DNA from: a virus
DNA: 64,000 bases
Strand: one strand, 5' to 3'
IMG/VR virus record: IMGVR_UViG_3300025086_000013
Location: 30,935-94,934 of that record
Part shown: positions 23,390 to 47,235 of the stretch, one piece after another
Numbering within the stretch: position 1 is the stretch's first letter
Layout: the number at the start of each line of letters is the position of its first letter
Program-made: the position numbers and the translations under genes
Notes under the pieces: model-generated
What the model was told of the DNA's origin: nothing
Seen by the model: only the letters and a program-made list of their open reading frames with translations
Database searches by the model: none

Positions 23390-26300
23390 TTATAACTTTC
23401 TGATATGATCATAAATATGTCTTCCTTTCTTTTTAGCATCTGTATAATATAATCTATTTATTTTATCAATATATTTCTTAACTCCTTTTTCATCAGATGT
23501 ACCATCAAATTTTCCATCTATGTATTCATTGTATATTCTAATTTGTGTATTTAAATCAAAAGCTCCTCCTGGAATATTTTGTTTTATTGCTCCACCTTTT
23601 TTTATTTTTGGAGTTCCAATTCCATATATATTATCTGATCCTATTTTATTTTGTGTTTGATGAACTTCTGGAGGTTTATTATTATTTCCTGCTCCAGGTT
23701 GTAATATATAATTACCAACATCTTTCCAAAATCCTGATGATTCATATTCACCTAGAACATCTACTTTCCCTGGTTGATTTACATCTGCTATATCTAAACT
23801 ATAAACATCAATAAGTGGATAATAATTTGAAACTCTTTTTGAATAATTTTCTCTTTCTGGATTCCATGTTTGAGCTAAATAGTCTCGTACATAATTTTGA
23901 TCAGATTTCTGTTCTGCTGTAAAATTATCTGTTCTGCTATTGTATCTATGTGCAATTATTGCTTGAGTTGCTATTGCGGATTTTTGAGGATCCATAAGAT
24001 CATGCTGACTTGTTATACCTAACTCATTAAGTAATTCTTTTTCTGTATCATCTAAAGCTACATCCCATTTTATTTGTGTCCAACCAACACTATCTCTTGA
24101 ACTTTTTGCACTCAGTTTTTTCTTATTTCCTTTATAATCTATTTCTATATCACCAATCTGACCCCAACTATGATATTTTCTATTAACATCAGGATTTGTA
24201 TTACCAATACCAGATGCTTTAGATATACCAAGACCCATATTAAGAATCTCAGGATTTATATTACCCATACCACTTTCTACACCATATATACCAAAACTAG
24301 TTGGTATAAGCATGTCATATATATCACTAGGAATTCCTGAATTTACTTTTACAAGTGCATCTAAAATTTGTTTTTTATTATTAACTATTGCATTTAAATA
24401 AGGTTCTGTATGTTTTTGAAATTCCATATCTTCATGAGCAGCATAAGAATTATAATCTAAATTGCTTTCTTGAATTTTATTTTTATCTATAGAAATACTT
24501 ACAGGATGATACTTTATACTTTCAGCACTTCTCATAATACCCTGACCTTCTCTCCATACTTGATCTTCTGAATCAAAATACCAACCACCTTGGTTTCTTC
24601 CTATTTCTCCAGTTTCTGGATGTTCTGGATTTTCTACTTCTCCTTTAAATGAAAGTTTTCCATCTTGATAAATAAACGTATTTTGATCTTTAAATTCAGG
24701 AAGGACATATACATTAGTTCCTTTTTTTATTGTGCCAAGTAACTCATTTAAATCACCACACTTCATATTAATGCATCCATATGATTGTCTATTATCATCT
24801 GTAGCATGAGAATATAATCCTTTTTTTCTTTGTTGTTTTTCTTCCCAATTAACAGTATTAGGTATACCATGTAAACTCATTGATATATTTTCACCTTCTC
24901 CCATTCTATCATGTGTAAGATTAAAAGATGGAACATCTCTTCTTTGACCTGTTTCGTCCCAATAACCTGAATCTGGATCTACATTAGAGATAGTAAATAT
25001 TCCAGCTCCTGTTTGCATATTACCTGCACTCCAATCATATGTCCATAACTTCTTACCATTTTTCCATACTTTATCATCGTCATTTATTATACCATCTTTA
25101 TTTATATCTAAAGGTTTTGTAACTGTTTGTTGATCACCAGGATTTTCTCCAATTAATATATTATAACTTCTTGTTGGATCTTTTTGTCCTGGATAATATA
25201 AATGTGTTTTACCAGCTATTTTATCTACAACTAAAAAAGGATCACCAGCAGGCTTCTTAACAATTAAATTTTGACCTGGATAAAGAGTACTGTCTTCACT
25301 TAATCCGTTATCAACTAATAATTGTTTTATGCTTGTTTGATTTTCATTTGCTATTTTTCCTAAGTAGTCTCCGTCTTGTATTGTATATGATAATTCTTCT
25401 ACAGTTTCATCTGGTTTATTTTCTCCTTCATAGAATAAAATCTTTTCTACATTTTGTAATTTATTTATATCTCTATTATTATTTATTTTTCTATCTATAT
25501 TTCTCCATGGCCCTACTGCATCTTCATAGTCAGGAGTATTCTTATCACTATATATTGAATCAACTAATGTATTTTCTATTTCTATTCTATCATTAGTACT
25601 ACCATTATTTAAACCATTATTTTCTAAATCTGCTTCTGTAGGTGTCCATGCTTCTCCTTTAAGATTAGTTCTAAATTTATTTCCTCTATAATCAAATATT
25701 TTATTTGGTCCTAAATTTTCTCTAGCTTTTTCAAATGCTTCACTAAATGTTTTAAAATCATCATAAAGTAATTTTGGTGTTTTTTTATTATTAGATGGTG
25801 ATTCGTTTTTAAGTTTTACAGAATCATCAATTCTAATATGACTTGGATTAGATTTATATTGTGGATTTAATTCAAGAACTTCTTCTAAGGTCATATCATT
25901 TGATCTAGCAATTCTTGTTAAATTATCTCCCTTTTTAACTTTATAAACACTTCCTCCATCTTGAAGTTTTGGTATATCATTATCAATTAGTCCATACTCA
26001 AACAATTCATCTTTTACAATTCCTGATACTTTACCTCCTTCTTTATATTTTTTTAATTGTTGTTGAAGTGTTTTAATTTTTTTATCATTTTTTTCATACT
26101 CTCCTCCTGCTTCAAATTGTTTTTCTTTTACATCTTCTTCTGTATAATCTCCTAATAACTTTTCAACAATTTCTGGAGGTAAATTATTTAAAATATAATC
26201 TTCATAAGAACTTGATTTATCATATTCCTCTATAGATTTTCTAAAATGATTTATATATTGTTCTGGTGTTTTATTTTGTTGATCAGCATTTTCACCATAT

Positions 26301-29300
26301 AAACTTGGAAATACTTCTGATAAAGACTTTCCATCTCTAACAACATATCCAAGATATTCTCTTGTGCCTTGTCTCCCTAAAAAGTTAACTAATGCAGCAA
26401 GTTCAGTTTTATTAAATGGCATATTTATTTGACCAGAGTATTCACTGTATACTTCATCTGCTGCTGCTTTTAAACCTCTTTCACCTTTAAACAAACTTCC
26501 ATCAAATCTTTTTTTGAATGTATTTTCTTGTGCTTCAAAATCTGCTATAAACTCATCTCTTGATCCATCATATAAACTATTGTCTGTTAACTCTGAAAAT
26601 CTTTGACCATATAATCCACTTGCACTAGATTCTGAATTTTTTAATAATTGTCCATTTGCACTTTCAACAGCTATAATACCTGCCTTAAGTTTATTATAAT
26701 CAACATGATAATCATCTATTCTATCTTGAGGTATTCTTACAGGGTTACCATTTTGGTCAACATTATTAGGATCATAGTACATTCTACCATATAATTCAAA
26801 AGGTTTACCAACTATTTTTTCTGCTGGTATAGTATAAGAACCATCTTCTCCTTTTTCTCCAAATAACCAACCTGCTGAAGCAAATGCTCCTTTCATAGGT
26901 ATATCAAAATCAAACTGATCATAATAAGAAACATAAGGGAGTTTGCGTTCTTCATCATAACCCTTTGAAAGTTTATAATTATTCATAGCAAAACCTCCAG
27001 AAGAAGAATCTTTTATATATAGATTATCTTCTTGTTTTGAATTTTCAGTTTTTGGTCTTTTCTTTAAAAACTCATATGATAAAACATCACTCCATATATC
27101 ATCATCCCAATTAAAAGAAAAATATTTTTTAGCTTTTTTTATTGCACCTTTAATAGTTGGTGAAAATTTTGATTCAGATATAGTATTATTTTCTGGTTCA
27201 AAACCTAAATATTTATCCCAAAGATCTTGTGAAGATTGTTTAATATATTCAGATTGTTCTGGTGGTAAATTTAAATTTTCTCCAAAAGTATCCCATGTTT
27301 GAGTTTTTCCATCCCATTCAAATGGTAATTTTTCACCAGCAATTAGTTCTTTAAAAGCATGATCTATATTATATCCAATTGGAGTTACAGAAGATCTCAT
27401 ACGTTGTGCTAGCATTCCTGGTTCTACTTCTCCTTTTTTCTGAAACCTTACAAGTTCTGCTCCATACTTAGCTTTAGGTTTTTCAGATTTTTGTAACATT
27501 TTTTGAAGAACCTCATAATTTTTTTGACCATAAGCATTTTTAAATATATCTAAATCTCTAATTAAATCTTCACTAGTATAATCTTCTCTTTTAGTAGCAT
27601 CTAATATTGCTTGTCCTGATGTATTTATTTTTGAAGATTGTTTAGTATTTTGTAATTCTCCCATAAGTTCTTCAACGGTTTCAGAAATTTTAGGAACGTA
27701 TCTCCATTGATTTTTTCCAAAATAACCAGAATCATCTTTTACTAGATCATAATGTTCTCTTTGGTATTCTGCTCCAGGATCATCTGATTTTAACCAGTCA
27801 AGTTCGTTTTGAAATGAATCATGTTTATCAGATTTTAAAAGCCATCCATCTTTTCCTACAGAAGGTCCATGATATTTATTATCATATGTTTCAGGAATCC
27901 AACCTTCTTCTCCCCAATAATCAGATTTTTTACTTTGATTAAAATCTTTTGGTTTACCCATAGCCTCCCAAAGACCTTCCATATTATAGTTAGGATCTTC
28001 TGTTTTAAGATTTTCTGGCAAAGTGTTTACAAAAGAGTTATAATCATCTCTTTCATTTTGCATATCAGGAGTTAAAACAATTTCTGGAATATCTCCAGTA
28101 AGAGGTGGTGAACCATAAGAAGCACCTGCTGGTTTAGGAACAAATCTAGATCTTTGAGGTAATTGTGTTTTTGGATTAGTTGGCATACCATCTATAGTTA
28201 CCGGATCTAAAGTTATTGTTTGAGAATCTCTCCAATATCTAAAATCAGGATTACTTATATAATCTAGTAAATCATCATGTTTATGATTAAATCCTTCATC
28301 TCTAAAAGCTTGTTTTAATCTTCCAGGATTTTGAAACCACTTCATATCTTTTTGTGAAACTGCAAATCTAATACCTCCTCTATCATTTACAATATCTATT
28401 TCACCAGTTCTAGGATCTAAACGTAAATGGTCCTTTCCTATTAAATTGTATTTTTGTTTTATATCACCAGGAAGCATGTATAAGTCTTCATCTCTAAGTG
28501 TATAACTTAAAGGAGTTTTATCACCATAATAATTCCAACCACTCCATGTTTTACCTTGTTTGTTAACTCTTAAATCTCTTTGATAACCTTGTTGATACCA
28601 TTCTTCACGTCCATATTCTTTTCTTTCTTCTGGTGTTAAATCAAACCAACTACTATATTGACTTATGGAGCCTTTACCTTTTTTCTTTAAATCTGTTACA
28701 TATTCTGGATTAAGATTAGCAAGCCCTGATTGATCATTTCCACGTGCATAAGTTCTCCATCCACTATTACCTTTGTATTCAAGAGTGTATGTTTTCTTAC
28801 CTCTATCATTAATATTTTCTCTAACCCTCATGTTTCCTGTAGTGTTATGGACTAAACTTGGCCAAGCTTGTTGAGAATGTTTTTTTGTATCTTTAAATAA
28901 TGATTTACCTCTATAGCTTAAAAAATTATCTAATTCGTGTCTTTCTATATCAAAGTATCTTCTTTTATATTTTTTATCTTTATAATCATATTCTTCATAA
29001 TCTGTCCAATCATTTGCAGGAACATATTTTTTTTCATTAGCTCCATACTTTTTAATTTCCCACTCTTCTTTTTCATCATCATCCTCTCCTCCTTTCTGAT
29101 ATATGTTTAAATCTAATAATGGTTTTCCTGTATTAAGTTTTTCTTGTACTATATTTTTCATAAAAGGTGCAAAGGGTCCTCTATTGTCTGGCATATTTTC
29201 ATATTTGTTTAACCATTCTTTTAATTCAGGTTTACTATATTCATCAATTCTTCTTTGAAATAATCCTAAATCAGATTTTGTTGGAATGTTATCTAATTGA

Positions 29301-30373
29301 TGAGCTTGTGGAGACCATGCGCCTGACCATACATCATCAAATTTTCTTCTAGAGTGTAATCCAAATTCTGGTGATTCTTGATGAGAATAAGGAGAAGATG
29401 CTGAACTACTTACACCTCTTAAACCATCTTGTCTATATGGATTATATTTTTCCCAACCTAAATAATACTTACGGTCATTCATATTAATAGGATCTAATTT
29501 TAACGAATTAATATATTGATTATGAATTTTTCCATTTTCTAATTTAAGTTGTTTATATTCTGTCATTAAAGCATCTCTTTCAGATTTAGAAATATTTTTA
29601 TCAAATATTTTCATTCTAAGATTTTTAATTTTAGATGCATATTGCATACTTTCTTTACTTAATATAACATCATATTTTGAATCTTTTAATCTGTTATACA
29701 GTTGATAATCTCCTGTAAAAATTTTTGTTTCATTTGGATATTTAAATTGACCATAAAAATATGTATCATTTAATGAATTAGATCTAAGATTACCTGGATT
29801 AAGTTTCATAGCTCCATCCATTGGAAGATGTATAGTAGTTAGTGCATCATCCCAATTTCCTACATGATGATTTATAACTGAACTTCCACTTCCAGAAAAA
29901 TGTGTAGTACGTGCATTATTAATCAAGTTTCCATTTTGATCAAAATCTATATATCTTCCTTTATCTCGTCTTATTAAATTGCCTTCAAAAGGTTTTGTTT
30001 CATCTATAAAGTCAAATCTATTTCTTGAAATATTACCAGGCCCTTGCACATTAGATGTTGGATTTTGTTGCCCAGATGTTCCATAATTAGTAGTGTTTGG
30101 CTTTGGTTTTGGATTCCACCAATCTTTTATTTTAGAAATAATACCTTTTTTCTTTTTAGATCCTCCTCCTTGCATTAAAGGTACTTCAAATACTTCATTA
30201 CCAGGAAATATATAATCAGCACCAGGCATCATAATTTGACTATTACCAAGGTTATCAGTTCCTCTTACAGGAAAGTCTACACCTTTCATAGTTATATTAC
30301 CTGATGGTATTATATTATAGGGATTGTTTTTATCCTTGCTATTTCTTTTATATCCGTTTTTACTATATTTCAT
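23390..30373 (-). CDS. Multidomain virion-associated peptidoglycan-acting polyprotein, 2327 aa (two lysozyme/SLT-like domains, two LysM, YkuD L,D-transpeptidase-like domain, unknown domains)
   Basis: IIAVESANG...SSASGLYGQ (SLT-like); YKVKKGDNLTRIA and YTIQDGDYLGKIA (LysM); FLVVDK...SLHG...SYGCINM (YkuD); GIYGVESG...SVGWTQIKW...LMDPQKS (second SLT-like). Confidence 0.8.
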   Translation of the reverse strand: MKYSKNGYKRNSKDKNNPYNIIPSGNITMKGVDFPVRGTDNLGNSQIMMPGADYIFPGNEVFEVPLMQGGGSKKKKGIISKIKDWWNPKPKPNTTNYGTSGQQNPTSNVQGPGNISRNRFDFIDETKPFEGNLIRRDKGRYIDFDQNGNLINNARTTHFSGSGSSVINHHVGNWDDALTTIHLPMDGAMKLNPGNLRSNSLNDTYFYGQFKYPNETKIFTGDYQLYNRLKDSKYDVILSKESMQYASKIKNLRMKIFDKNISKSERDALMTEYKQLKLENGKIHNQYINSLKLDPINMNDRKYYLGWEKYNPYRQDGLRGVSSSASSPYSHQESPEFGLHSRRKFDDVWSGAWSPQAHQLDNIPTKSDLGLFQRRIDEYSKPELKEWLNKYENMPDNRGPFAPFMKNIVQEKLNTGKPLLDLNIYQKGGEDDDEKEEWEIKKYGANEKKYVPANDWTDYEEYDYKDKKYKRRYFDIERHELDNFLSYRGKSLFKDTKKHSQQAWPSLVHNTTGNMRVRENINDRGKKTYTLEYKGNSGWRTYARGNDQSGLANLNPEYVTDLKKKGKGSISQYSSWFDLTPEERKEYGREEWYQQGYQRDLRVNKQGKTWSGWNYYGDKTPLSYTLRDEDLYMLPGDIKQKYNLIGKDHLRLDPRTGEIDIVNDRGGIRFAVSQKDMKWFQNPGRLKQAFRDEGFNHKHDDLLDYISNPDFRYWRDSQTITLDPVTIDGMPTNPKTQLPQRSRFVPKPAGASYGSPPLTGDIPEIVLTPDMQNERDDYNSFVNTLPENLKTEDPNYNMEGLWEAMGKPKDFNQSKKSDYWGEEGWIPETYDNKYHGPSVGKDGWLLKSDKHDSFQNELDWLKSDDPGAEYQREHYDLVKDDSGYFGKNQWRYVPKISETVEELMGELQNTKQSSKINTSGQAILDATKREDYTSEDLIRDLDIFKNAYGQKNYEVLQKMLQKSEKPKAKYGAELVRFQKKGEVEPGMLAQRMRSSVTPIGYNIDHAFKELIAGEKLPFEWDGKTQTWDTFGENLNLPPEQSEYIKQSSQDLWDKYLGFEPENNTISESKFSPTIKGAIKKAKKYFSFNWDDDIWSDVLSYEFLKKRPKTENSKQEDNLYIKDSSSGGFAMNNYKLSKGYDEERKLPYVSYYDQFDFDIPMKGAFASAGWLFGEKGEDGSYTIPAEKIVGKPFELYGRMYYDPNNVDQNGNPVRIPQDRIDDYHVDYNKLKAGIIAVESANGQLLKNSESSASGLYGQRFSELTDNSLYDGSRDEFIADFEAQENTFKKRFDGSLFKGERGLKAAADEVYSEYSGQINMPFNKTELAALVNFLGRQGTREYLGYVVRDGKSLSEVFPSLYGENADQQNKTPEQYINHFRKSIEEYDKSSSYEDYILNNLPPEIVEKLLGDYTEEDVKEKQFEAGGEYEKNDKKIKTLQQQLKKYKEGGKVSGIVKDELFEYGLIDNDIPKLQDGGSVYKVKKGDNLTRIARSNDMTLEEVLELNPQYKSNPSHIRIDDSVKLKNESPSNNKKTPKLLYDDFKTFSEAFEKARENLGPNKIFDYRGNKFRTNLKGEAWTPTEADLENNGLNNGSTNDRIEIENTLVDSIYSDKNTPDYEDAVGPWRNIDRKINNNRDINKLQNVEKILFYEGENKPDETVEELSYTIQDGDYLGKIANENQTSIKQLLVDNGLSEDSTLYPGQNLIVKKPAGDPFLVVDKIAGKTHLYYPGQKDPTRSYNILIGENPGDQQTVTKPLDINKDGIINDDDKVWKNGKKLWTYDWSAGNMQTGAGIFTISNVDPDSGYWDETGQRRDVPSFNLTHDRMGEGENISMSLHGIPNTVNWEEKQQRKKGLYSHATDDNRQSYGCINMKCGDLNELLGTIKKGTNVYVLPEFKDQNTFIYQDGKLSFKGEVENPEHPETGEIGRNQGGWYFDSEDQVWREGQGIMRSAESIKYHPVSISIDKNKIQESNLDYNSYAAHEDMEFQKHTEPYLNAIVNNKKQILDALVKVNSGIPSDIYDMLIPTSFGIYGVESGMGNINPEILNMGLGISKASGIGNTNPDVNRKYHSWGQIGDIEIDYKGNKKKLSAKSSRDSVGWTQIKWDVALDDTEKELLNELGITSQHDLMDPQKSAIATQAIIAHRYNSRTDNFTAEQKSDQNYVRDYLAQTWNPERENYSKRVSNYYPLIDVYSLDIADVNQPGKVDVLGEYESSGFWKDVGNYILQPGAGNNNKPPEVHQTQNKIGSDNIYGIGTPKIKKGGAIKQNIPGGAFDLNTQIRIYNEYIDGKFDGTSDEKGVKKYIDKINRLYYTDAKKKGRHIYDHIRKL

Positions 30374-33300
30374 TATCTAAAGGATAGGTTAAGTTTTGTA
30401 TTAACTAATTTAAGTAACATTTTTCTTTGATGAAGAATAACTTCTCCAGGTTGGAAATGGAATTCGTCTATCCAAAAACCTTCAGTTTCTTCAACTCTTT
30501 TTCTAAGAATTAAGTTATTTACATAATGTCTAAATTTCTTTCTTTCTAATTGAGGTTTATTATAATCTAAATAAGCATCATTTAGATCTCTAATATAACC
30601 ATTTAATTGAGTTATAAACATTGACTCAGAAACATTTCTGTTTGAAGTTATATCCCAAAATTGATCAAATCTATATTTTTGTTCTACTTTACTATATAGT
30701 ATTTGAATGTCATTTGCACCAATTATTGGATAAGAAATTATATCATTTACATCAGGTGTTTGCTCTACAAGAGTTAACAACCCAGAAACTTGTTCTGTAT
30801 TATAAATAATAGCTTCATCAAAGTTATACATTAAATCATGCCATCTATCATCACATCCATAATTTAATGCACAGCCTTCGTCATCTAATTGTACTTTGTA
30901 TTCAAAAGCTTCCATTTGATATTCAACACTTCTTACTGTATTAACCGCTTGACCTACAGATTCTACAAGTTCAATTTCCCATGGATATTGTATATCATAA
31001 TAATTATTAAATAAATCACAACGTACATTATGTTTCCATAAACTGCTTGATTCAGTTACAGGAAATACTTGTGGTGCAATATTAAATTCATCTTCACAAA
31101 TTCTTATTTTACATTCTACACCTATTGTTGACTCTTGTTCATTAAATATTGTTAAACAATCTATTTCTTCTGCTGGATCCCATGTTCCTATAAAATACAT
31201 ATCATAACCTTCTGGACACTCACATGTTAATGCTGTTAGTTCTATTCCAGTAGTACCACCAGGATCTACTATTTCAGTTATTGGATCATCAGTTGAGCAT
31301 TCTAAACAACCTTCATCAAGAGCATCTTGTAAAGTAGGTTCAAGTCTTTGATCTATAACTACAGGGTGAAATTCCCAAGGAAATTCAAAATCTCCTGTAC
31401 CTATACCCCATTGACCATAACCCATAATTGTTGCATATTGAACATTTGAATAAAAGTTAGCTGTATCAGGTGGTATATTACCTGGGGGATCAAAACATCC
31501 AGGTGCTTCAATTGGATCTTCATTATCATCTAATTCACCAGCATCCCATGCTTCATATGTTTCTATATAAGTATCTTGATATGAATTTAAAGTATCTAAA
31601 GGACCTCCAAAAAATCCAAAATCAGGATCTGGATCATATGCAGTACAAGAATGAGTATGAGATGCACCAAGGTTATGTCCTATCTCATGCATTACAACTT
31701 TAAAAGACCAAGATGAATCAAAATCAGAATTTAAAAATCCTTCAGGATTAAATTCTATATTTTGACTTAAAGGTGCAGCAATACCATAAGCTCCTGGAGT
31801 TGATTCACAATAATCTGGTGATACATCATGGTTACATACTCCACCTATACCCCATGCTTGACCACCTTCAAGAACTTCATCATTCATACTAAATATATAT
31901 ACTAAACTTCTGTCAACTGCAATTAAATCTGGATCTGTTGTCCACTCAGCAATAAGAGTTTGTAAATAACAAGTTCTAATTTTATGAATACTACCATTAT
32001 CACAACCACCACAAGGAAAAGACATTGAAAAATTATCATTTAATGTCCATATACGAAGATAATTAAGTGTCACCTGTGTATCTAATTGATCTTCATATAC
32101 TTCACTAACTCCAGCTATAATCATAGTCACCCAATCTGTAAGTGCATTAATATTATCTGCTTCATCACCATTATTAAATTCTTCATAAGTATACTTATCA
32201 ATTTCAATTGCCATTTTAATACAACCTCCAGTTGAAGATCTAGCTTGTTTTGCAGATGCTTTTCTTGCTGCTTTTGTAATATCATCAGTGGTTGCACAAT
32301 CAAATATTGGAATTCGTTTTGAATCAAATGTATTATATAAAATATATTTAGTTTTATCTTTACTTGCTTTCTTTTTAACATCTGAATCTTCAACAGTAAA
32401 TTCATAAATTTTCTTACCCTTTCTAATTACTCCAAACATTTTAGTTTCCATAAATGTTATAGATCCTTTTAAATCTTTTTCTCCACGAATTTTATATGAA
32501 ACTGCTTTAGATACATATGGATCTTTCACTCTTCCTTTTTCTGTTTCTAAAACTACTTGAAAATCTTTTGAATGTACATTGACAAGTTCTAATGGTAATT
32601 TAAGAGTTTGGTTATCCATAAAAGGAACAGTTATACTAAATCTTTTAGGCTTTGATAATCTAATGTCTTTAAGTATACTATCTTCTATTTCAAAGTAAAT
32701 AGAATTATTTTTATTTTTTGTTACACTTGCATTTTCAATATGTATTCTATTAAATGGTGGCATATCATCACCATCATCTATAATGGCAAAATCAAATGTA
32801 AAATCAGGAGTTCCTTGACCATAATTACCACCATATTCAACTTTACAACATTGTGGAGGATCTAATGTTTCATCAAGTTCATAACCAGGACCACACTCCC
32901 AAGTTGCATCATTTATACACATACCAAATTCATCCATAGTATACCCTGGAGGACATATTGGATCCAATCCTTTTATTGTATTAGTTGTAAGAAAATGATT
33001 ATAACTAGACATAGTAAGTTCAGGATGCCAATCATGAAATGATATCCATCCTTTAATCTTAGGGTCATAACTTACCGTCCAGGATATATCTGTAAAAAAC
33101 TCATTATTTTCTAAATCAACAGGTGTTATAACATCTATATAAGGAGCAGGATCACATATTCTTTCTACACACTCTACACATTCACCTTCACATTCTATAC
33201 AGTCTTGTTCTGTTGCAGGAAAAGGAGTTCCAGTAAAAAATAAATCTCCTTGAGGACAATCACAAGCAAATACTGGATCAGGTACTGGTGGTTGAAAATT

Positions 33301-36300
33301 ATCTACAGAAACATAAGTAGAAGAAGTTAGTGGGTTATTAGGATAATTACTTCTACATCGTATTGTAAGATAAGGCCATGGTCCACCATAAGGCATAAAT
33401 ACATATGGAATTTGTGTACTTCCATTCATGCTAGCCCAAGTATTCCATTCATATGGTTCAGGACCATCTGGTTGTAAATTAACTCTTATAGGAAAGTCCT
33501 CAGATCCTGTTTGTGCTCCTATTGTAGAATCATCATCTATTCCGTGATAATCAGTTATAGTTCCATTTATACCATCTACAGCTGGAGATATCCATAATAA
33601 TTCACCTAGATCACAGGAACTCTGACTTCCCCAAATTTCTATACCCATTTCATGATTTAAATCATAAGTAATATTAGCTATTGTATAATAAGTTTTATGA
33701 CCTTCTTCACTTATAACATAATAACCAACTGTATCTGGAGGACCTCCTAAAGCTATAGTTCCTCGGTAAACAACACCTGGTTGTAAATCTGTAGGATTTC
33801 CAGCAGTATCTAGCATTGGAGTACTAACATGTTCTACCCAACCAGCATGATTTGTAACTAATGAAAGATATGATTGTCCCTGAACTGCTGGCCAATCAGG
33901 ATACTCTGTATCTAATTCTTCATCATAACCACCACCAACTGTCCAGTTACCTGGTTGTATGTCTGGTGTAAGAAAACCACATACTTCCCAATATTGTGCC
34001 ATTGACGTAGACGGATCACCCCAATCATTAAAGTAAGTACTATATTCTTCAGGTTCTTCTCTAAGTCCATAAGCAAGAACGTGTGAACCATTTCCAGTTA
34101 GTGGTCCCATCCAATTAGATGTTGGTGGAGTTCCATCAGTACCACTTGTACCTATACCTGGTTCATATTTCCACATGTCACTTGTAGAACCATATCTTTG
34201 TTCTGATATAGTCCATGGTGGCCATATTAAAGGCCAATTTCCTGGTACACCAAAATCATCCATAGTGTATTCCCATGAAGGATTTTGAACAATTATAGTT
34301 TCTGCTGCTTCAAGATCTTGATAATAATTTGCCTCATAGTAATTAAAAGTACAACACTCATCTGTTTCTGGATCATACTCTGTACCTTCTGGACAATCTG
34401 GAACTTGTGCTACACCATAACATTCTGTTTCATTAATAACTAATCCTAATTCTTCATCAAACTCTATACATTCTGGATTACATGGTTCATAATCTTTTTT
34501 AGAAAAATAAACTATATCATAGTTAGGATCATATACAGATTGAACACCTATACCAAATACAGGATTATCTGCATAATCAGTTCCTTCTAATTCAGGATAT
34601 GCGGCTAATAATCTAGATGGCAAATATTTATTAAACCATTGTTTTAATCCTGCATCTGCAATATTTGTAAGACCTTGTGCATAATTAAATATTTTACCTT
34701 GAGCTTGTGATATATAAAATACACCTGAAGGAGTATTAATAGCACTAAGTGAATCTTCACATGATCCATATTCATGTGGAAGATCAGCTGTAGTTATTTG
34801 TTGCATTGGTTCATTAAATAAACCACCATCTCCAATAGAAAGTTTAGTTTCAAAATCTGTTGTTAGAGTATCAACACCTTGAAATAATTGAGGAGCTAAA
34901 TGAGGAAATAATATAAGAGCTCCAGATTTAGAAACAGGTTTAATTGTGCTTGGTGCATTTTTAAAGTCTTTATAATTATTTGGAAGATATACTCTCCAAA
35001 AATCTTTTTTAGCTTCATTAAATGCTTGTAATGAATATATAACTCTTTTTGGATAATGTTTAAAACAATTATCTGCAACAGAAGGATCATAATCTCTAGG
35101 TTGTATAGTACCATAAGTAATCATTTGACTATTTAAGTTAGACTTACTTAATGAATCATCATACTTATAGAAGTTACCTTCTTTAATTATATCAACATGA
35201 AATAATTGATCAATGTCTGTATAGTTTGTCCAGTCATAATGTTTTTCTTTTCTGTCTCCACCATAATCTCTATATCCCATATTAAGTTCTGATTCTACAA
35301 AGAAATCATTTACACCACTACAATGAGTATACATATATGCTGTTTTATGTATAAAGAAATTAAATTGAGTACCAGCACCAGGAGCTCCAGAACCAAAACT
35401 CCAATCACCAGATCCAATCTCTGTAGTAGCGTCACCTGCATCACTACCTGGTATATCTAAGTTATGTAGAGTTGAAGGTATTCCACCTGCAGTCCAGTTA
35501 AATGAAAAGTTTAAAAGTGGAGATATCATATTAATCATATCAAACTTTGTCATGTCCATCCAGTGTCTTGCATAAGGAACATTTTGATAATTTTGATACT
35601 GAAAAGGAAATTCATCTGGTTCATTATCTTTTAAAAATTGCCAAAAGAATGGCATTATAACTTTTTCATTATATCTGTTTAAATATACATCTCCTCCAAA
35701 TAAACAATCTGATACATACGTATCATCTTCTTGAGGTATAAATAATCCACGTTCATTATAAATTTCTGCACAATCACCTTGATTTGGTGTCCATTCAGTT
35801 CCAGAACCAGTTGCAGGACCAGGTACAAAACCTTCTTCTCCTGGTTGCAAAACTTTAGCATCTTTAAAACATTGTATACATGGAATAGGTAATTGTTTAA
35901 TACCATCTAATTGTCCATATTGATTTTGCATATTAAATTTAAGAGCTACATAATGTGCAGCAATTAAAGAACTATAATGACCTCCAGTAGGATTACCATA
36001 AATCCCATCACCAAATGCACCAGAAAGTGTACTTAATGTTTGTCTTGAAGTATCAAGCCAACCACCAAAAGGATTCACAAGTTCATTCATTGATATAGGA
36101 TTACCAACTTGATTACCTTGTGTTTGTAAAACAACAGTTGATGGTCTAAATAAATTGTTTATTCTCATGTTATCAGCTGTAAACTCAGAACCAAAATCTT
36201 GTATTGTATTACCAACATATCCTGATTTACCTAATCTGTTTCTAAATACTAATCCATTTGCCCTAGGGATTTCAGTACCATAAAGACCATAAGAATTATA

Positions 36301-39036
36301 TTTAAGAGCATGTGGTTTTGGTGAAGAAAGATTTATAACTAAATCTACAACTTCTTGACCACCTACTGCTACATAATTTAAAGTTGAAAATATTGTAGTT
36401 GCAATTGCCATTAAGTTAGGTAAAGCTTTATAGTTAGTTCCTTTAAACTCTACAGTTCTACCTGGACCAATGTGTCCTGGTGTAAGAGCTGCAGCAGCTT
36501 CTTCTGCTACTTGAACACTACCCATGTATTGAACTTCACCACCTCCTGGACCTAAAGGAAGAGGAAGATCAAGTCCAATAGCAGATAAAGTAAAATTAGT
36601 TTCTGAAAGTTGATTTACACCTTCAGCAGTGACTGATGCTGCAGCTCCTGCTACAGAAGCAGCCATTGTATTTGATGCTCCTGGAGAAATTAATGGTAGT
36701 CCTAGTCCACCAGCCCCACCTGTTATTGATGTTGAGGCATCTACAAGAGCAAATGGTGCAGTTGCAGGCGTTAAAGACGTAATACCAGGTGCTCCTGCTA
36801 AAACACCAGGTAATGGAGGTATTACAGGAGTAGTAGTAATTCCACCCCATGAAGGGTTTTTTCCATCATCTGCTTGTCTAGTTTTTTCAATTTTTTCAAT
36901 TCTTTCACCACGCATTTGATTAATAGCATAACCTACACCAATTATAGCTGCAATGATTGCGGTAAAGTCACGTATTATTGTATTCTTTGGATGTTTTTCT
37001 GCTGTAACAAAATGTCCTTGCTGTCTACCAGCATGAACACCATAACTTTTAATTTCATAAGGATTTAAATAAGGTCTTTTAAATGATGTTTCTGGTGAAT
37101 GAAAAGTAAAAAAATTATTACATGTTGCATAATTTGCACCACCATTTCCACAACTTGTAAAACCTAAAGAGTTCCCAGCTCCATTATCACCCCAAGATAG
37201 AGTTCCATTATCAGTTGTTACTAGATATGGATCTACACCAGGAGAATTATAAGGGTAGTTTGGTATAAGACCTGTTGTACCAATTAATGTAGGGTTATCA
37301 GCACCAGAGTTTCCATCAGCAGGAATAGAATAGTTTCTCATACTCCTTACCATACCTTTTGCCATTATAGATTTATTACCTTGTCTTGAACCTACAAGTA
37401 TTTCATATCCTACAATATTTCTTATAAGAGAACCATCAAAATTTCTTGGCCATGTAATGTTATCAAACTCAACACCTAATACACGTATTCTTTGATTGTC
37501 TACATTAGATTTAAAAACACTACCATCTGTTTGTTCATCTGGAAATTTATGATGTCTAATTGGTGTACCACATAATTCACCCCATCTTCCATTTGGATCT
37601 GTACTAGGATATAACTCTGTAGATTCCCAATATCCCATACTACCCTTTGCTATTATTGTACCACCATCATCTGTAACAGGATTAACAAAAGGACCAAAGT
37701 CATCAGCAACAGCTGTATTATGTGTTTGCCAAAATTCAGTTTCTGTTGCGTCTATAACATTATTACCATCTGCTATTGCTGAATCTGTAGCATTTTTATC
37801 TCTACCTGGTATATGATATGATTCAGATTTTTCTCCTGTAGAATAAATAAACCTTATAAAAAATGAATATTGTTCATCTCTCATAAATGTAGGTTTATTA
37901 CCACCTTTTTTATAATAGTCTGCTGGATATTCTACAGAAACCCATCTAGCACCTATGTGGTTTGCTTGAGGTTGATAATTAAAATCATACTGACTTGTTG
38001 GTCCTATTCTAAGAAGATAGTCATTAAGAGCTATCATTTTATCAGATCTTTCAAAAGCAGGATTTCTTAATGATAGTTGTGAAAATGGAACAGAACCTGC
38101 TTTTGCTGTAGCTTCATTTATATAATCAATATTTATTGATGTTTGTCTTGTACTATATAATCCAACTAATCTTCCTTGTATTTGTTGTTGATTATTAGAT
38201 AATATTACTAATTTAAAAAAATCAAAATTTGTATCTAAATTGCTTATTTCTATATCTAGTGAACAAGCAGTATCATCATGTTCCCATAAAGGTTGTATAT
38301 TTGAAACTCCAATATAATCACCTATTTGTTGTTCGTTTACAGTATATGCAATAAAAGCTTGATATGATCCATTCTTTAATAAACCTCCACTTGGAGATTT
38401 AGAAAGTTTTATACATGGAGTTTTCATTAAAGGTGCTAAACGTATAAGATCACAATCAAGTTGTAATGGATCAGCATTTTCATATACCCAACATGGCTCT
38501 CCTTGTCCTCCTTCTTCTTCCGGACCTGCAACTAGTGTTTGTATCCAAGGTACATTAATGTTTTCTGTAATTCTATCAGCAGGACCTAAATTAAGAGTTC
38601 TAGAAGGATTTCTTCCATCATCCCAATATACTTGCCAAGAACAATCAAAATTTTCTTTAGAGGCTCCTGTAATAAGATTAACTTTATTAAAGTCTAAACA
38701 TTGATCATTAATTAAAGTAGTATATTCACATCTGCTATCATCAAAATAACCTATTTCACTACTTTGATTATCTGTAGAATATATTATCCAGCTATCACCA
38801 AATAGATTAATAAAGCCAATTATAGTATAATCAACACTAATACAATTTAAATTTGCAGGTTCATTACCTATTGTACCAGCATCACCTTTTGCAGAATTGT
38901 TTATACAATTTCTGCAATGAACCCAATTTTCTTGCCCCACAAAACTATCATGGGCATCTTTTGTCATACCTTTGACAAACAGATCCGTATCAATACTAGA
39001 AGTATCTTGAGGTTGTGAATTTTGTCCTTTTGCCAT
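30373..39036 (-). CDS. Tail muzzle / stabilisation protein (P22 gp10-like position), 2887 aa, with large insertions including a reprolysin-like (M12B/M84-type) metzincin
   Basis: Core motifs typical of crAss-like stabilisation proteins (F.KGM.KD start, VYWDDGRNPSR, FMRDEQYSF, WTVSYDP...WISFHDW, LWKHN). Located downstream of the IHF-like and ring genes. HEIGHNLGASH at 31657-31689 plus Met-turn ATIMGY. Confidence 0.8.
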   Translation of the reverse strand: MAKGQNSQPQDTSSIDTDLFVKGMTKDAHDSFVGQENWVHCRNCINNSAKGDAGTIGNEPANLNCISVDYTIIGFINLFGDSWIIYSTDNQSSEIGYFDDSRCEYTTLINDQCLDFNKVNLITGASKENFDCSWQVYWDDGRNPSRTLNLGPADRITENINVPWIQTLVAGPEEEGGQGEPCWVYENADPLQLDCDLIRLAPLMKTPCIKLSKSPSGGLLKNGSYQAFIAYTVNEQQIGDYIGVSNIQPLWEHDDTACSLDIEISNLDTNFDFFKLVILSNNQQQIQGRLVGLYSTRQTSINIDYINEATAKAGSVPFSQLSLRNPAFERSDKMIALNDYLLRIGPTSQYDFNYQPQANHIGARWVSVEYPADYYKKGGNKPTFMRDEQYSFFIRFIYSTGEKSESYHIPGRDKNATDSAIADGNNVIDATETEFWQTHNTAVADDFGPFVNPVTDDGGTIIAKGSMGYWESTELYPSTDPNGRWGELCGTPIRHHKFPDEQTDGSVFKSNVDNQRIRVLGVEFDNITWPRNFDGSLIRNIVGYEILVGSRQGNKSIMAKGMVRSMRNYSIPADGNSGADNPTLIGTTGLIPNYPYNSPGVDPYLVTTDNGTLSWGDNGAGNSLGFTSCGNGGANYATCNNFFTFHSPETSFKRPYLNPYEIKSYGVHAGRQQGHFVTAEKHPKNTIIRDFTAIIAAIIGVGYAINQMRGERIEKIEKTRQADDGKNPSWGGITTTPVIPPLPGVLAGAPGITSLTPATAPFALVDASTSITGGAGGLGLPLISPGASNTMAASVAGAAASVTAEGVNQLSETNFTLSAIGLDLPLPLGPGGGEVQYMGSVQVAEEAAAALTPGHIGPGRTVEFKGTNYKALPNLMAIATTIFSTLNYVAVGGQEVVDLVINLSSPKPHALKYNSYGLYGTEIPRANGLVFRNRLGKSGYVGNTIQDFGSEFTADNMRINNLFRPSTVVLQTQGNQVGNPISMNELVNPFGGWLDTSRQTLSTLSGAFGDGIYGNPTGGHYSSLIAAHYVALKFNMQNQYGQLDGIKQLPIPCIQCFKDAKVLQPGEEGFVPGPATGSGTEWTPNQGDCAEIYNERGLFIPQEDDTYVSDCLFGGDVYLNRYNEKVIMPFFWQFLKDNEPDEFPFQYQNYQNVPYARHWMDMTKFDMINMISPLLNFSFNWTAGGIPSTLHNLDIPGSDAGDATTEIGSGDWSFGSGAPGAGTQFNFFIHKTAYMYTHCSGVNDFFVESELNMGYRDYGGDRKEKHYDWTNYTDIDQLFHVDIIKEGNFYKYDDSLSKSNLNSQMITYGTIQPRDYDPSVADNCFKHYPKRVIYSLQAFNEAKKDFWRVYLPNNYKDFKNAPSTIKPVSKSGALILFPHLAPQLFQGVDTLTTDFETKLSIGDGGLFNEPMQQITTADLPHEYGSCEDSLSAINTPSGVFYISQAQGKIFNYAQGLTNIADAGLKQWFNKYLPSRLLAAYPELEGTDYADNPVFGIGVQSVYDPNYDIVYFSKKDYEPCNPECIEFDEELGLVINETECYGVAQVPDCPEGTEYDPETDECCTFNYYEANYYQDLEAAETIIVQNPSWEYTMDDFGVPGNWPLIWPPWTISEQRYGSTSDMWKYEPGIGTSGTDGTPPTSNWMGPLTGNGSHVLAYGLREEPEEYSTYFNDWGDPSTSMAQYWEVCGFLTPDIQPGNWTVGGGYDEELDTEYPDWPAVQGQSYLSLVTNHAGWVEHVSTPMLDTAGNPTDLQPGVVYRGTIALGGPPDTVGYYVISEEGHKTYYTIANITYDLNHEMGIEIWGSQSSCDLGELLWISPAVDGINGTITDYHGIDDDSTIGAQTGSEDFPIRVNLQPDGPEPYEWNTWASMNGSTQIPYVFMPYGGPWPYLTIRCRSNYPNNPLTSSTYVSVDNFQPPVPDPVFACDCPQGDLFFTGTPFPATEQDCIECEGECVECVERICDPAPYIDVITPVDLENNEFFTDISWTVSYDPKIKGWISFHDWHPELTMSSYNHFLTTNTIKGLDPICPPGYTMDEFGMCINDATWECGPGYELDETLDPPQCCKVEYGGNYGQGTPDFTFDFAIIDDGDDMPPFNRIHIENASVTKNKNNSIYFEIEDSILKDIRLSKPKRFSITVPFMDNQTLKLPLELVNVHSKDFQVVLETEKGRVKDPYVSKAVSYKIRGEKDLKGSITFMETKMFGVIRKGKKIYEFTVEDSDVKKKASKDKTKYILYNTFDSKRIPIFDCATTDDITKAARKASAKQARSSTGGCIKMAIEIDKYTYEEFNNGDEADNINALTDWVTMIIAGVSEVYEDQLDTQVTLNYLRIWTLNDNFSMSFPCGGCDNGSIHKIRTCYLQTLIAEWTTDPDLIAVDRSLVYIFSMNDEVLEGGQAWGIGGVCNHDVSPDYCESTPGAYGIAAPLSQNIEFNPEGFLNSDFDSSWSFKVVMHEIGHNLGASHTHSCTAYDPDPDFGFFGGPLDTLNSYQDTYIETYEAWDAGELDDNEDPIEAPGCFDPPGNIPPDTANFYSNVQYATIMGYGQWGIGTGDFEFPWEFHPVVIDQRLEPTLQDALDEGCLECSTDDPITEIVDPGGTTGIELTALTCECPEGYDMYFIGTWDPAEEIDCLTIFNEQESTIGVECKIRICEDEFNIAPQVFPVTESSSLWKHNVRCDLFNNYYDIQYPWEIELVESVGQAVNTVRSVEYQMEAFEYKVQLDDEGCALNYGCDDRWHDLMYNFDEAIIYNTEQVSGLLTLVEQTPDVNDIISYPIIGANDIQILYSKVEQKYRFDQFWDITSNRNVSESMFITQLNGYIRDLNDAYLDYNKPQLERKKFRHYVNNLILRKRVEETEGFWIDEFHFQPGEVILHQRKMLLKLVNTKLNLSFR

Positions 39037-39046
39037 TATACACTAT

Positions 39047-39955
39047 TTATCTAACTGGAAAACTTTTAAACATATCATAGTAATTACTATATTGTGCTTT
39101 TCTATTAACTTCCCATATTTTTTGTACCTCCTTAAAGTCAGGAGTATTAATAAATCCTAAAGCATTATTTCTAGCAGCTCTAAGTTTTTGTTCTATATAA
39201 CTTATTTTTTGTGAAACTTGTTCTCCACTAAATAACATGTTTTCTAATATTCTTTGTTTTAATGCATACTCATAGTATTCATTACAGTATGGATGGTCAA
39301 GCACTAATAATTCTCCATCTTCATTTTCCATGGCTCCTTGATAATTTATATAAACTTTTCCTGATGTAAAATTTGTTAATAAAAATCCATCTTTAATTTC
39401 TGCTACATCCATTGCTTGAATATTAATATTTGGACAATCACATTGCAAAGAACCAGTATTATCTTTTATTCTTAAAGGATAGAATCTACTAGAAGTTCTA
39501 TATTGTTCAGCACCCATATATTGAACAACCATGTATTGATCATATACTGTTTTTCCATTTTCTTCTTTAGGACAAGTTTGAACAACGCAAACATCTTTAC
39601 ATGTAGGATCATCACAAGGACCGGTATCACCACCGTCTGGAGCAGGTACATATTTAGTTTGAGTTGTATCTACATGTGTACCTGAAGGAAATGTATTTCT
39701 TATTTTAAATTCATCACAAACAAAAGCATAATTTAAATACTTAAAATCTGAAGGTAATTTAACTTTATTGTGTTCAACTTCTAAAAGATCTTCCTTAGTT
39801 CTATGTATTCTTAATCCTAAATCATAATTAACACGAGTTGCTACTTTAATTAATTGTTGAGGTTCTATCATTCCTTCTAGAGATTGTCCAGAAAAATCAA
39901 TACTAACATCAGCTAACAATTGATCAAAAGTTCTATATTTATGTGATATTGCCAT
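39047..39955 (-). CDS. Tail ring / tubular protein (crAss-like), 302 aa
   Basis: Position immediately before the muzzle gene; LPSDF...G.VYINY...ENEDGELLV pattern of podovirus adaptor/ring proteins; small Cys-rich loop. Confidence 0.6.
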   Translation of the reverse strand: MAISHKYRTFDQLLADVSIDFSGQSLEGMIEPQQLIKVATRVNYDLGLRIHRTKEDLLEVEHNKVKLPSDFKYLNYAFVCDEFKIRNTFPSGTHVDTTQTKYVPAPDGGDTGPCDDPTCKDVCVVQTCPKEENGKTVYDQYMVVQYMGAEQYRTSSRFYPLRIKDNTGSLQCDCPNINIQAMDVAEIKDGFLLTNFTSGKVYINYQGAMENEDGELLVLDHPYCNEYYEYALKQRILENMLFSGEQVSQKISYIEQKLRAARNNALGFINTPDFKEVQKIWEVNRKAQYSNYYDMFKSFPVR

Positions 39956-40629
39956 TATCTATTTACATTTTGTTTATTATCTCCATCTTCTGCAGGAGCT
40001 TTCATTGTATTAAATGTCTCTTGTAAAACTTGTTGTTCTATTTCAGCATGTAAAAATTCTGGTACAAAAAATCTTTGCATATATCTAGGAGGATCACAAT
40101 TATCAGTAGGATCACAATTAAACTTTGATATATCACCTTCAAAAATGCCTTCTATCTTTATAGCTTCCCATTCTATATTTGGAAGATATAAGTAATCATT
40201 TATCCACCAAAAATATTTTGTTTTATTATATTTAAATGAAGTTGTATTAGCCATTGCAGTAAATGTAGCAGGAGAAGTTGCTTGTACATTTACAGATCCA
40301 TCAATAGAAGAAACACTTCTAATTAATGGTCCCCAATAGCCTTCCATAAATGTTGGAAGTTTTAATCTTGTACGTTTAATTGTGCAATCACTTTTTATTC
40401 CACAACAATTTGATTCTATCTTATCTACATCAACTAAATCAACAAAAGTTAAAGTTTGCCATACACTATTAAACTTCATAAGTTTATTTGCACCATCTTG
40501 TCTTCTCATAAGAAGTGTAGAGTACTTTTTTATTAAGCTATATAAGTATCTATCTGTAACAAAAGCATCTTCAGATTCTGCTTTTATTTGATTTCTAATT
40601 CTAGATACTACATCCCCTATTGTTGTCAT
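39955..40629 (-). CDS. Tail ring protein (crAss-like), 224 aa
   Basis: Size, synteny between the IHF-like gene and the tubular/muzzle genes, and the T..D.V..IR...D..VTDR start. Confidence 0.55.
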   Translation of the reverse strand: MTTIGDVVSRIRNQIKAESEDAFVTDRYLYSLIKKYSTLLMRRQDGANKLMKFNSVWQTLTFVDLVDVDKIESNCCGIKSDCTIKRTRLKLPTFMEGYWGPLIRSVSSIDGSVNVQATSPATFTAMANTTSFKYNKTKYFWWINDYLYLPNIEWEAIKIEGIFEGDISKFNCDPTDNCDPPRYMQRFFVPEFLHAEIEQQVLQETFNTMKAPAEDGDNKQNVNR

Positions 40630-46200: not shown

Positions 46201-47235
46201 ACACTGAGATCTAGAAGCTTTAAGAATATCTGCAGTACTTCCAAGAGCTTTTTTTAATTTAGAATAATCTAAATCTAAATCACTAAGTAATTTGTTCATT
46301 GGTACACGTTGACCAATTTTTCCTACAGATCTTGCAATAACAGTTGGTGGAGTATAGATTGCACCAGACTTTCTTTCTACATTTATAAGTTTTTTTTCTA
46401 GATTTTTTATTATAGGTAATTGTCTAACTGCTCTATTAGTAAGGTGTTGTGTATTATCTCTAATACCAGGAGCTCCACCTGCGGAAGGATTAGGACTACA
46501 ATCTACAGCAGTTAATAAACAACATAGTTTAGAACTAACAAATTCTAACCATCCACTATAAAAATATTGCTGATTACCGTCAAATTCCCAATAATATTGA
46601 GAATTTCCGCTATCAAGAAACATTGTATTAGTTATGGAACCATTTACTGTAATTGGAGTATTAGGAGACTCAACTGAATATATTTGAATACCCAAAGAAA
46701 CATTATTGTCTTGTACATATCCTAATGCACTTCTACACGGAAAGTCTACTTTTATACTTCCTGGATCTCCTGGACTACCTGCTGGACCCGGACTACCTGC
46801 TGGTCCTGGGCTACCTGCTGGTCCTGGGCTACCCGCTGGACCTGGATCACCTAGTGGTCCTATTGGTCCTATTGGACCTATTGGGCCTAAAGGTCCACTT
46901 GGTCCTTCTAATCCTTCAATACTATTTATGAAGTTCCATATTCTTGTAAGTTCAGTTACTGTATCACAATCAAACTGAATCATTATGTTTATTAAATCTG
47001 AAATAGTTTCAGGATCTTCTGTTAAACCATAACATGTCCAATCAATTAAACTTAGATCAAAAATTTCACCACCACCATCTAAATGACAAATAAATTCAGC
47101 TATCTTTGCAATAATAATACTAATAGTATCACCATTACAAACATCTATACAATCTAAATCTGGACCTTGCCATACAACACAATTTGAAGATATAGGATTA
47201 CATCCGTTTGTATTTCCAGTAGTAAGTGGTATCAT
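43264..47235 (-). CDS. Tail/head fibre-like protein, 1323 aa, with Cys-rich anchor, collagen-like segment and FN3-like domain
   Basis: [22 protein letters not shown]-terminus; 18 G-x-y triplets; [13 protein letters not shown]3-like motif; Thr/Ser/Gly-rich C-terminal half. Confidence 0.7.
46753..46914 (-). repeat. Collagen-like G-x-y repeat (18 triplets; 9-bp and 18-bp tandem DNA units)
   Basis: GLE GPS GPL (GPI)3 GPL GDP (GPA GSP)4 GDP GSI. Confidence 0.9.

Follow-up and report, generated by a model that had tools for sequence, protein, structure and literature searches.

What would a protease zymogen be doing inside the tail of a phage? The question is raised by a 64,000-nucleotide stretch of DNA, referred to here as the window, which spans positions 30,935 to 94,934 of the IMG/VR virus record IMGVR_UViG_3300025086_000013 and encodes a giant muzzle protein, the tail-end protein of crAss phages. 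The original prediction, made from the DNA letters, held that a complete reprolysin-like pro-metzincin is embedded in this protein. We find that residues 2093-2586 of the muzzle protein (positions 31280-32760) are indeed predicted, by profile searches and structural modelling, to form a full M12B-like (ADAM/reprolysin-type) zymogen, with the zinc-binding motif at 31657-31689 as claimed, and we propose that the virion may cleave proteins that its Flavobacteria host carries on its surface or that surround the host. The source is an uncultured marine crAss-like phage, represented by a 94.9-kb record with an estimated completeness of 81%; near-identical DNA is present in marine metagenomes of several studies.

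The zymogen module and its carrier

The carrier of the protease module is a crAss muzzle protein. It is encoded by a single unbroken open reading frame of 2887 aa on the minus strand (30373..39036), a strand that the original prediction had left unspecified. The product matches the Pfam family crAss_MUZ (PF25731; E 2.7e-18, 65.9 bits against a cut-off of 27) and falls among virion structural proteins in PHROG. The crAss_MUZ profile aligns strongly at the N-terminus, and a second match joins residues 1422-1531 to profile positions 1112-1198 (of 1224); a search of the whole muzzle protein against the PDB gave no match. The module itself, also on the minus strand, can be divided as follows, with model confidence given as the predicted local distance difference test score (pLDDT):

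32305..32760 (-): prodomain, residues 2093-2244; beta-rich and basic, with AlphaFold2 strands at pLDDT 85-95, and aligned with the ADAM17 prodomain inside the best structural match
32290..32304 (-): cysteine-switch-like motif F-D-C2247-A-T, residues 2245-2249; modelled at pLDDT ~80, with the Cys forming a beta-bridge
32224..32289 (-): basic linker from prodomain to catalytic domain, residues 2250-2271; low pLDDT (59-66), with a candidate processing site around R2266/S2267
31279..32223 (-): predicted M12B-like catalytic domain, residues 2272-2586; Pfam Reprolysin_5, _3 and _2 above cut-off, structural Z 19-20
31657..31689 (-): zinc-binding motif H2450-E-I-G-H2454-N-L-G-A-S-H2460, then T-H; from sequence and conservation
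31417..31431 (-): Met-turn T-I-M2538-G-Y, residues 2536-2540; from sequence and conservation

The family assignment comes first from profile matches and motifs. Over residues 2274-2463, in line with the reprolysin-like identity given in the original prediction, Pfam Reprolysin_5 scores 54.9 bits (cut-off 27; E 1.7e-14), Reprolysin_3 scores 30.3 (cut-off 22.4) and Reprolysin_2 scores 28.7 (cut-off 27), a match far beyond chance. The canonical Pfam Reprolysin family of ADAMs and snake-venom enzymes (PF01421) reaches 14.8-20.2 bits, below its cut-off of 20.8, and gives weak or sub-threshold matches in 42 of 48 family members. An NCBIfam scan returned nothing near cut-off, and no M84-named family appeared among the Pfam and NCBIfam matches, these being general scans that included no MEROPS family profile. 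HEIGHNLGASH is the sole HExxH of the muzzle protein. With this HExxHxxGxxH motif and its Met-turn, the module can be placed by sequence among the metzincins, and in M12B in the broad sense of Pfam Reprolysin_2-5. Further landmarks are the linker segment KAARKASAKQAR at residues 2255-2266, SSTGGC at 2267-2272, CIKMAIEID at 2272-2280 and GQAW at 2392-2395.

Structural modelling extends this picture to the prodomain. An AlphaFold2 model of the module (residues 2093-2586), built from a 48-sequence alignment, has a mean pLDDT of 79.8 and a predicted template modelling score (pTM) of 0.87. Its best structural match is zymogen ADAM17 (9o54_A), with Z 24.8 and 353 residues aligned; this alignment covers model residues 11-492 and so takes in prodomain and catalytic domain alike. 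The next matches are snake-venom metalloproteinases and catalytic domains of ADAMs, at Z ~19-20 (root-mean-square deviation 2.7-3.0 Å, 193-200 of ~200 residues aligned), and profragilysin-3 and metalloproteinase II (MPII) of Bacteroides fragilis match at Z ~19 over pro and catalytic domains. The modelled catalytic-domain fold and packed prodomain fold are both of ADAM type, and the confidence and beta-bridge of the Cys segment are consistent with its docking in the cleft, without being proof of it. In sequence space, a profile made from the homologue family found snake-venom metalloproteinases in the PDB (E 4e-18) as well as 8snm_A, the propeptide chain of ADAM17 (E 5e-4); the propeptide match was lost with a prodomain-only profile built from truncated homologues. 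A single-sequence search of the module against the PDB returned only spurious repeats from designed Kelch proteins and was set aside for the profile search.

The closest mechanistic parallel is with ADAM17, whose beta-barrel prodomain ends in a cleft-filling segment with a single cysteine (C184) that binds zinc (PMC12184519). Like zymogen ADAM17 (PDB 9O54, 8SNL, 9O58), the phage module is predicted to combine a beta-barrel-type prodomain, a single conserved Cys, a flexible linker of ~25-30 residues and an M12B catalytic domain; C2247 lies 25 residues ahead of the catalytic domain, as in ADAM17. The two differ in that the phage module, at 15-16% identity, has no disintegrin, Cys-rich or membrane parts and no furin RxxR site, carries F-x-C-x-T instead of the ADAM motif and Thr instead of Asp after the third His, and is an internal insert in a structural protein made in the cytoplasm. 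Bacteroidota have pro-metzincins of their own. Fragilysin, for example, is kept latent by an aspartate switch and is activated by an Arg-specific host protease. Profragilysin-3 and MPII (PDB 3P24, 7PND, 4ON1) share the ADAM-like fold and a large prodomain with the phage module over 287-295 aligned residues, but at 10-13% identity, and they are free secreted toxins rather than virion parts.

Relatives, origin and charge of the module

If the module is a zymogen, where did it come from, and has it been kept intact? A library-wide HMMER search with residues 2093-2586 returned 840 homologues at E<=1e-3. In most of them the match starts ~20-60 residues from the N-terminus and spans both the prodomain-like and the catalytic parts, and all six cellular N-termini that were inspected are hydrophobic, signal-peptide-like leaders. 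A type IX secretion system (T9SS) sorting domain was found in 15 of the 48 homologues scanned, and the nearest cellular group was traced to 30 genomic loci, every one of them in a Flavobacteriales/Bacteroidota assembly. The earlier claim that the module follows the layout of secreted Bacteroidota zymogens is thus supported. Marine Flavobacteriales enzymes of Reprolysin_5 type (RPG57662.1 from Flavobacteriales bacterium TMED191; MGY8980637.1, annotated 'M12 family metallo-peptidase') are colinear with the phage module at 30-37% identity and share with it the F-x-C, HExxHxxGxxH-T-H and T-I-M-S-Y-type motifs and conserved Cys positions. These cellular enzymes have a signal peptide, an acidic prodomain and often T9SS sorting, TSP3, LRR or SprB domains, whereas the phage copy lacks a signal peptide, lies between Cys-rich stalks, and has a basic prodomain and extra inserts.

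The residues expected of a working zymogen are strongly conserved. Among 126 aligned homologues, C2247, H2450, E2451, H2454, H2460 and T2461 are invariant; the Phe of the prodomain motif is kept in 109, the Gly of the zinc motif in 112, and the Met and Tyr of the Met-turn in 120 and 118, respectively. The same module occurs in muzzle proteins of at least 13 distinct phage lineages (2836-4217 aa, three of them contig-end fragments). At 25-37% identity, none of these 13 copies has lost the Cys motif, any of the three His, the Glu or the Met-turn. Retention of these residues across such diverged copies suggests, at the level of sequence, selection for both catalysis and latency.

Some positions around the zinc site do vary. 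The Gly of the zinc motif is replaced in some phage copies and some cellular homologues; P0187 and P0007, for example, have Arg at this position and P0157 has Ala. The Cys that follows H-T-H is lost in P0187, P0188 and P0007. These replacements point to subfamily variation in the turn of the zinc site and in the predicted disulfide pattern.

A maximum-likelihood tree built from 132 modules groups the phage copies in a single clade (local support 0.96), with three signal-peptide proteins as its sisters. Because the phage copies are monophyletic and their sisters have signal-peptide-like N-termini, their distribution is best accounted for by a single capture, after which the module was long retained across muzzle lineages. 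The donor was, by this phylogeny, a secreted protease such as marine Flavobacteriales carry, and the module has moved between two cassettes of the muzzle protein since its capture. Between the window and its closest relative, which is 88% identical, the module is 90% identical and the muzzle core 87.6%, and the GC content of the module is unremarkable relative to the gene. Near-identical copies of the module in marine metagenome contigs, at low depth, show two differences only, both in run X8, at window positions 31953 (I2362V, catalytic domain) and 32712 (K2109E, prodomain), which are too few to infer selection. No RNA run is listed among the sequencing runs that carry this DNA, and an IMG/VR scan with P0002 alone returned no other record.

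The charge of the module sets phage copies apart from cellular ones. As the original prediction had noted, a Lys-rich prodomain sits between acidic flanks: Lys plus Arg number 7-11 per 40 residues across residues 2101-2260 and 0-3 in the flanks. The window prodomain (residues 2093-2266) has a net charge of +13 and an isoelectric point (pI) of 9.7, against -48 and pI 4.05 for the catalytic domain and -204 for the whole muzzle chain. The median prodomain pI is 9.5 in the phage clade and 4.9 in cellular homologues, with values of at least 9 in 10 of 13 phage copies (one more is at 8.99) and in 2 of 109 cellular ones. Phage catalytic domains carry net charges of -23 to -43, compared with a cellular median of -12. 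Of the 13 phage copies, 11 have a linker Arg placed 5-8 residues ahead of the first catalytic-domain Cys, an Arg that none of the five cellular homologues compared has; in the window, R2266/S2267 would be a candidate site for cleavage. Because the basic prodomain, the acidic catalytic domain and the linker Arg are specific to the phage copies, we infer that latency or its release may have been re-tuned after capture.

Stalks, cassettes and neighbouring genes

How is the module held in the muzzle protein? The layout was derived from BLASTP block maps against P0004, P0157, P0185, P0292, Lbo-JY46 and phi17:2, and also P0204 and P0270. Around the module, it comprises the following parts:

34357..39036 (-): conserved muzzle core, residues 1 to ~1560; common to all relatives in the BLASTP blocks
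33142..34356 (-): cassette 1, with a Cys-rich outgoing stalk, a payload domain (residues ~1620-1905) and return stalk 1 (~1906-1965); missing in P0292 and Lbo-JY46
32932..33141 (-): short conserved block between the cassettes, residues ~1966-2035; kept in phi17:2, P0292, P0204 and P0270
32761..32931 (-): outgoing Cys-rich stalk 2, residues ~2036-2092; read from sequence
31069..31278 (-): return Cys-rich stalk 2, residues 2587-2656; homologous to return stalk 1
30376..31068 (-): conserved C-terminal muzzle domain, residues 2657-2887; 44-76% identity in P0004, P0157, P0185 and P0292, and also present in Lbo-JY46 and phi17:2

The protease zymogen is the content of cassette 2, bracketed by Cys-rich segments. 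The return stalk postulated earlier is a real, duplicated Cys-rich element, as return stalks 1 and 2 are homologous (local score 90 against a shuffle mean of 31; z 8.8); the outgoing stalks 1 and 2 are weakly similar (z 2.0). The payload of cassette 1 (~33322-34177 (-), residues ~1620-1905) has no Pfam match, and the same place holds a VWA domain or a protease in sister phages. The protease occupies cassette 1 rather than cassette 2 in P0157, P0184, P0189, P0190 and P0004. P0204 has a VWA domain in cassette 1 (residues 1601-1715), P0270 has a weak, partial match to the chitin-binding domain CBM_14 in its variable region. Muzzle homologues number more than 2,200; among the best 120 matches, ~35 have VWA domains, including sister muzzle proteins such as P0204 and P0224. 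In the minimal relatives P0292 (1676 aa) and Leptolyngbya phage Lbo-JY46 (1654 aa), the core, short block and C-terminal domain are joined almost directly, and such minimal forms of ~1650-1700 aa have no payload. In a small sample of 10 complete related muzzle genes in IMG/VR, three carry the protease. Since the cassettes can hold a protease, a VWA domain, possibly a chitin-binding domain or nothing, the muzzle looks like a general display platform with exchangeable stalk cassettes.

One protease-bearing muzzle gene lies in an unusually large contig. It encodes 4217 aa, the same length as P0004, at 9950-22600 of L046 (IMGVR_UViG_3300030098_004828), a viral contig of 245.6 kb; other relatives measure ~95-120 kb. 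The size of this contig could reflect a larger genome, a concatemer or mis-assembly.

The best-studied muzzle offers a partial guide to where the cassettes sit. The window protein resembles crAss001 gp44 (PF25731; PMC10172136) in its N-terminal and late-propeller matches and in the gene order ring 2, ring 1, muzzle and large cargo-like protein; unlike gp44 (1371 aa), it has 2887 aa, two stalk cassettes with payloads and a C-terminal domain with no detectable gp44 match. Bayfield et al. 2023 (PMC10172136) describe the crass and IG2 regions as variable in length and mention no protease. Residues 1380-1521 align to gp44 1083-1205 (hhalign E 3.5e-4, probability 37%), and hhalign of the C-terminal muzzle domain against gp44 gave no match. 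The cassettes thus start right after the position aligned with gp44 residue ~1205 of 1371, in the late beta-propeller rather than the distal crass domain, and the module may therefore project from the shoulder of the muzzle. The tail-tip position given in the original prediction should accordingly be taken with caution.

The neighbouring genes follow the crAss arrangement, including two ring protein genes:

39047-39955 (-): tail ring protein 1, directly upstream of the muzzle gene; Pfam CrAss_Ring_1, E 2.2e-11
39955-40629 (-): tail ring protein 2, upstream of the ring protein 1 gene; Pfam CrAss_Ring_2, E 1.6e-23

A protein of ~305 aa is encoded upstream of the muzzle gene in 13 of 15 related viral loci, and the order of ring proteins, muzzle and giant cargo-like protein recurs in related loci. 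The gene directly downstream of the muzzle gene, 23390-30373 (-), has a 2327-aa product in which two LysM domains are combined with a domain of YkuD L,D-transpeptidase type; this product is probably a cargo protein equipped to act on the cell wall.

Proposed role and alternatives

What, then, might the module do? The reading that we favour, with moderate confidence, is that it is a virion-tethered latent protease that is activated outside the cell and cuts host-surface or matrix proteins. If the muzzle is hexameric, by analogy with crAss001, there would be six copies per virion. While the particle is assembled in the host cytoplasm, the enzyme would be held off by its prodomain and a Cys-zinc bond, and pairing between the positive prodomain and the negative catalytic domain would strengthen this inhibition. 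Outside the cell, the block could be lifted by cleavage of the linker near R2266/S2267, by degradation of the Lys/Arg-rich prodomain, by thiol oxidation, or by displacement at an anionic cell surface. Both halves would remain tethered to the virion via their stalks, and the active enzyme would cut host surface proteins or a protein matrix so that the muzzle reaches the outer membrane. A more specific version, in which the host itself provides the trigger, is possible but unlikely in our view: an anionic surface would pull off the basic prodomain, or the Arg/Lys-specific proteases that Bacteroidota secrete would cut it, so that the protease is switched on at contact.

Several observations weigh against a latent, host-directed protease. 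In strict M12B enzymes, an Asp directly follows the third zinc His (HExxHxxGxxHD); here the residue is Thr2461 rather than the adamalysin Asp, and this Thr is invariant in the whole bacterial and phage family. A scan for the Pfam propeptide family Pep_M12B_propep gave no match at E<=1, either for the window copy or among the 48 family members. The origin of the cassettes in the late beta-propeller, rather than in the distal crass domain, means that reach to the cell surface is assumed. An AlphaFold2 model of residues 1906-2887 (982 residues covering the stalks, module and C-terminal domain) has a mean pLDDT of 52 and a pTM of 0.45, too poor to show how the stalks pair or how the module is oriented. 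A prodomain that stays tethered beside the enzyme could re-inhibit it after cleavage. Finally, activity, zinc binding, processing and presence in the virion are all predictions for an uncultured phage.

Might the module bind rather than cut? In this alternative, a pro-protease that is never activated would serve as an adhesin or receptor-binding head on its stalk. The module shares its swappable cassettes with binding-type domains (VWA and the weak CBM_14 match), its prodomain is always retained and the whole is tethered at both ends, and a basic prodomain could bind anionic surfaces. Pure binding, however, needs none of the zinc His, catalytic Glu, Met-turn and switch Cys that 13 phage lineages keep at 25-37% identity, and no phage copy has a degraded active site; we consider this explanation quite unlikely. 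Still less does the evidence favour a passenger, a recently captured and roleless fragment of a host gene that is now decaying. Cassette payloads are often gained and lost, but the phage copies make up a single, deep clade, and none has lost a functional residue; close relatives preserve the module no less well than the core, the GC content of the module matches the gene, and the open reading frame is intact, with near-identical copies in marine metagenomes of several studies. Such a relic seems highly improbable.

The substrate could also belong to the phage itself, with the protease cutting the muzzle gate or exiting cargo, for example at the hydrophobic-Q/K/E-x-G-G junctions that recur in the giant proteins encoded nearby. 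In crAss001, cargo exits via the muzzle (PMC10172136), and GG motifs number 6 in the 2327-aa and 7 in the 1364-aa adjacent proteins, against 2 in the muzzle. Across relatives, however, the downstream gene has 0-2 GG motifs where the muzzle bears a protease (L039, L036, L046) and 2-3 where it does not (3 in L049 and L040), so that cutting at cargo G-G junctions is not supported by co-occurrence of the protease with GG-rich cargo. Cargo genes are universal, yet most muzzle homologues are without the protease; the donor family is secreted and extracellular; and the display stalks that hold the module are common to adhesion domains. We regard a phage-directed role as doubtful, and as less probable than a binding role. 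A virion-tethered protease that acts on the host surface or matrix remains our preferred reading.

Phage tails are known to carry enzymes that cut sugars and cell walls; tailspike depolymerases and tail peptidoglycan hydrolases clear the host barrier before DNA delivery. These act on polysaccharide or peptidoglycan and are not zymogens, unlike the predicted protein-cutting metzincin with its intact inhibitory prodomain described here. A literature search found no description of a phage tail or muzzle that carries a reprolysin or any other metzincin, nor of a virion-borne metzincin kept as a zymogen; the one phage-linked metzincin paper that it returned concerns a secreted enzyme of a Listeria prophage remnant (PMC8235301). 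Likewise, no homologue turned up when 50,697 deposited phage genomes were searched with the module by tblastn, and a BFVD structure search with the module model gave no match at E<=0.001. If the enzyme is active, some abundant ocean Flavobacteriales phages would breach a protein barrier (surface adhesins, S-layer or particle matrix) enzymatically, and the module would be a new host-range determinant. It would also show a cysteine-switch zymogen at work in nature without the secretory pathway, and, if triggered by the host, would be a contact-sensing enzymatic tail device with no described phage counterpart. The crAss muzzle, with cassettes that hold a protease, a VWA domain, possibly a chitin-binding domain or nothing, may be a display platform that can be exploited experimentally.

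Two further large genes lie elsewhere in the window. The first (43264-47235 (-)) has a 1323-aa product, which bears collagen triple-helix repeats close to the N-terminus and may be a tail fibre; the second (2-12850 (-)) is a giant open reading frame of >4283 aa that extends beyond the window start.

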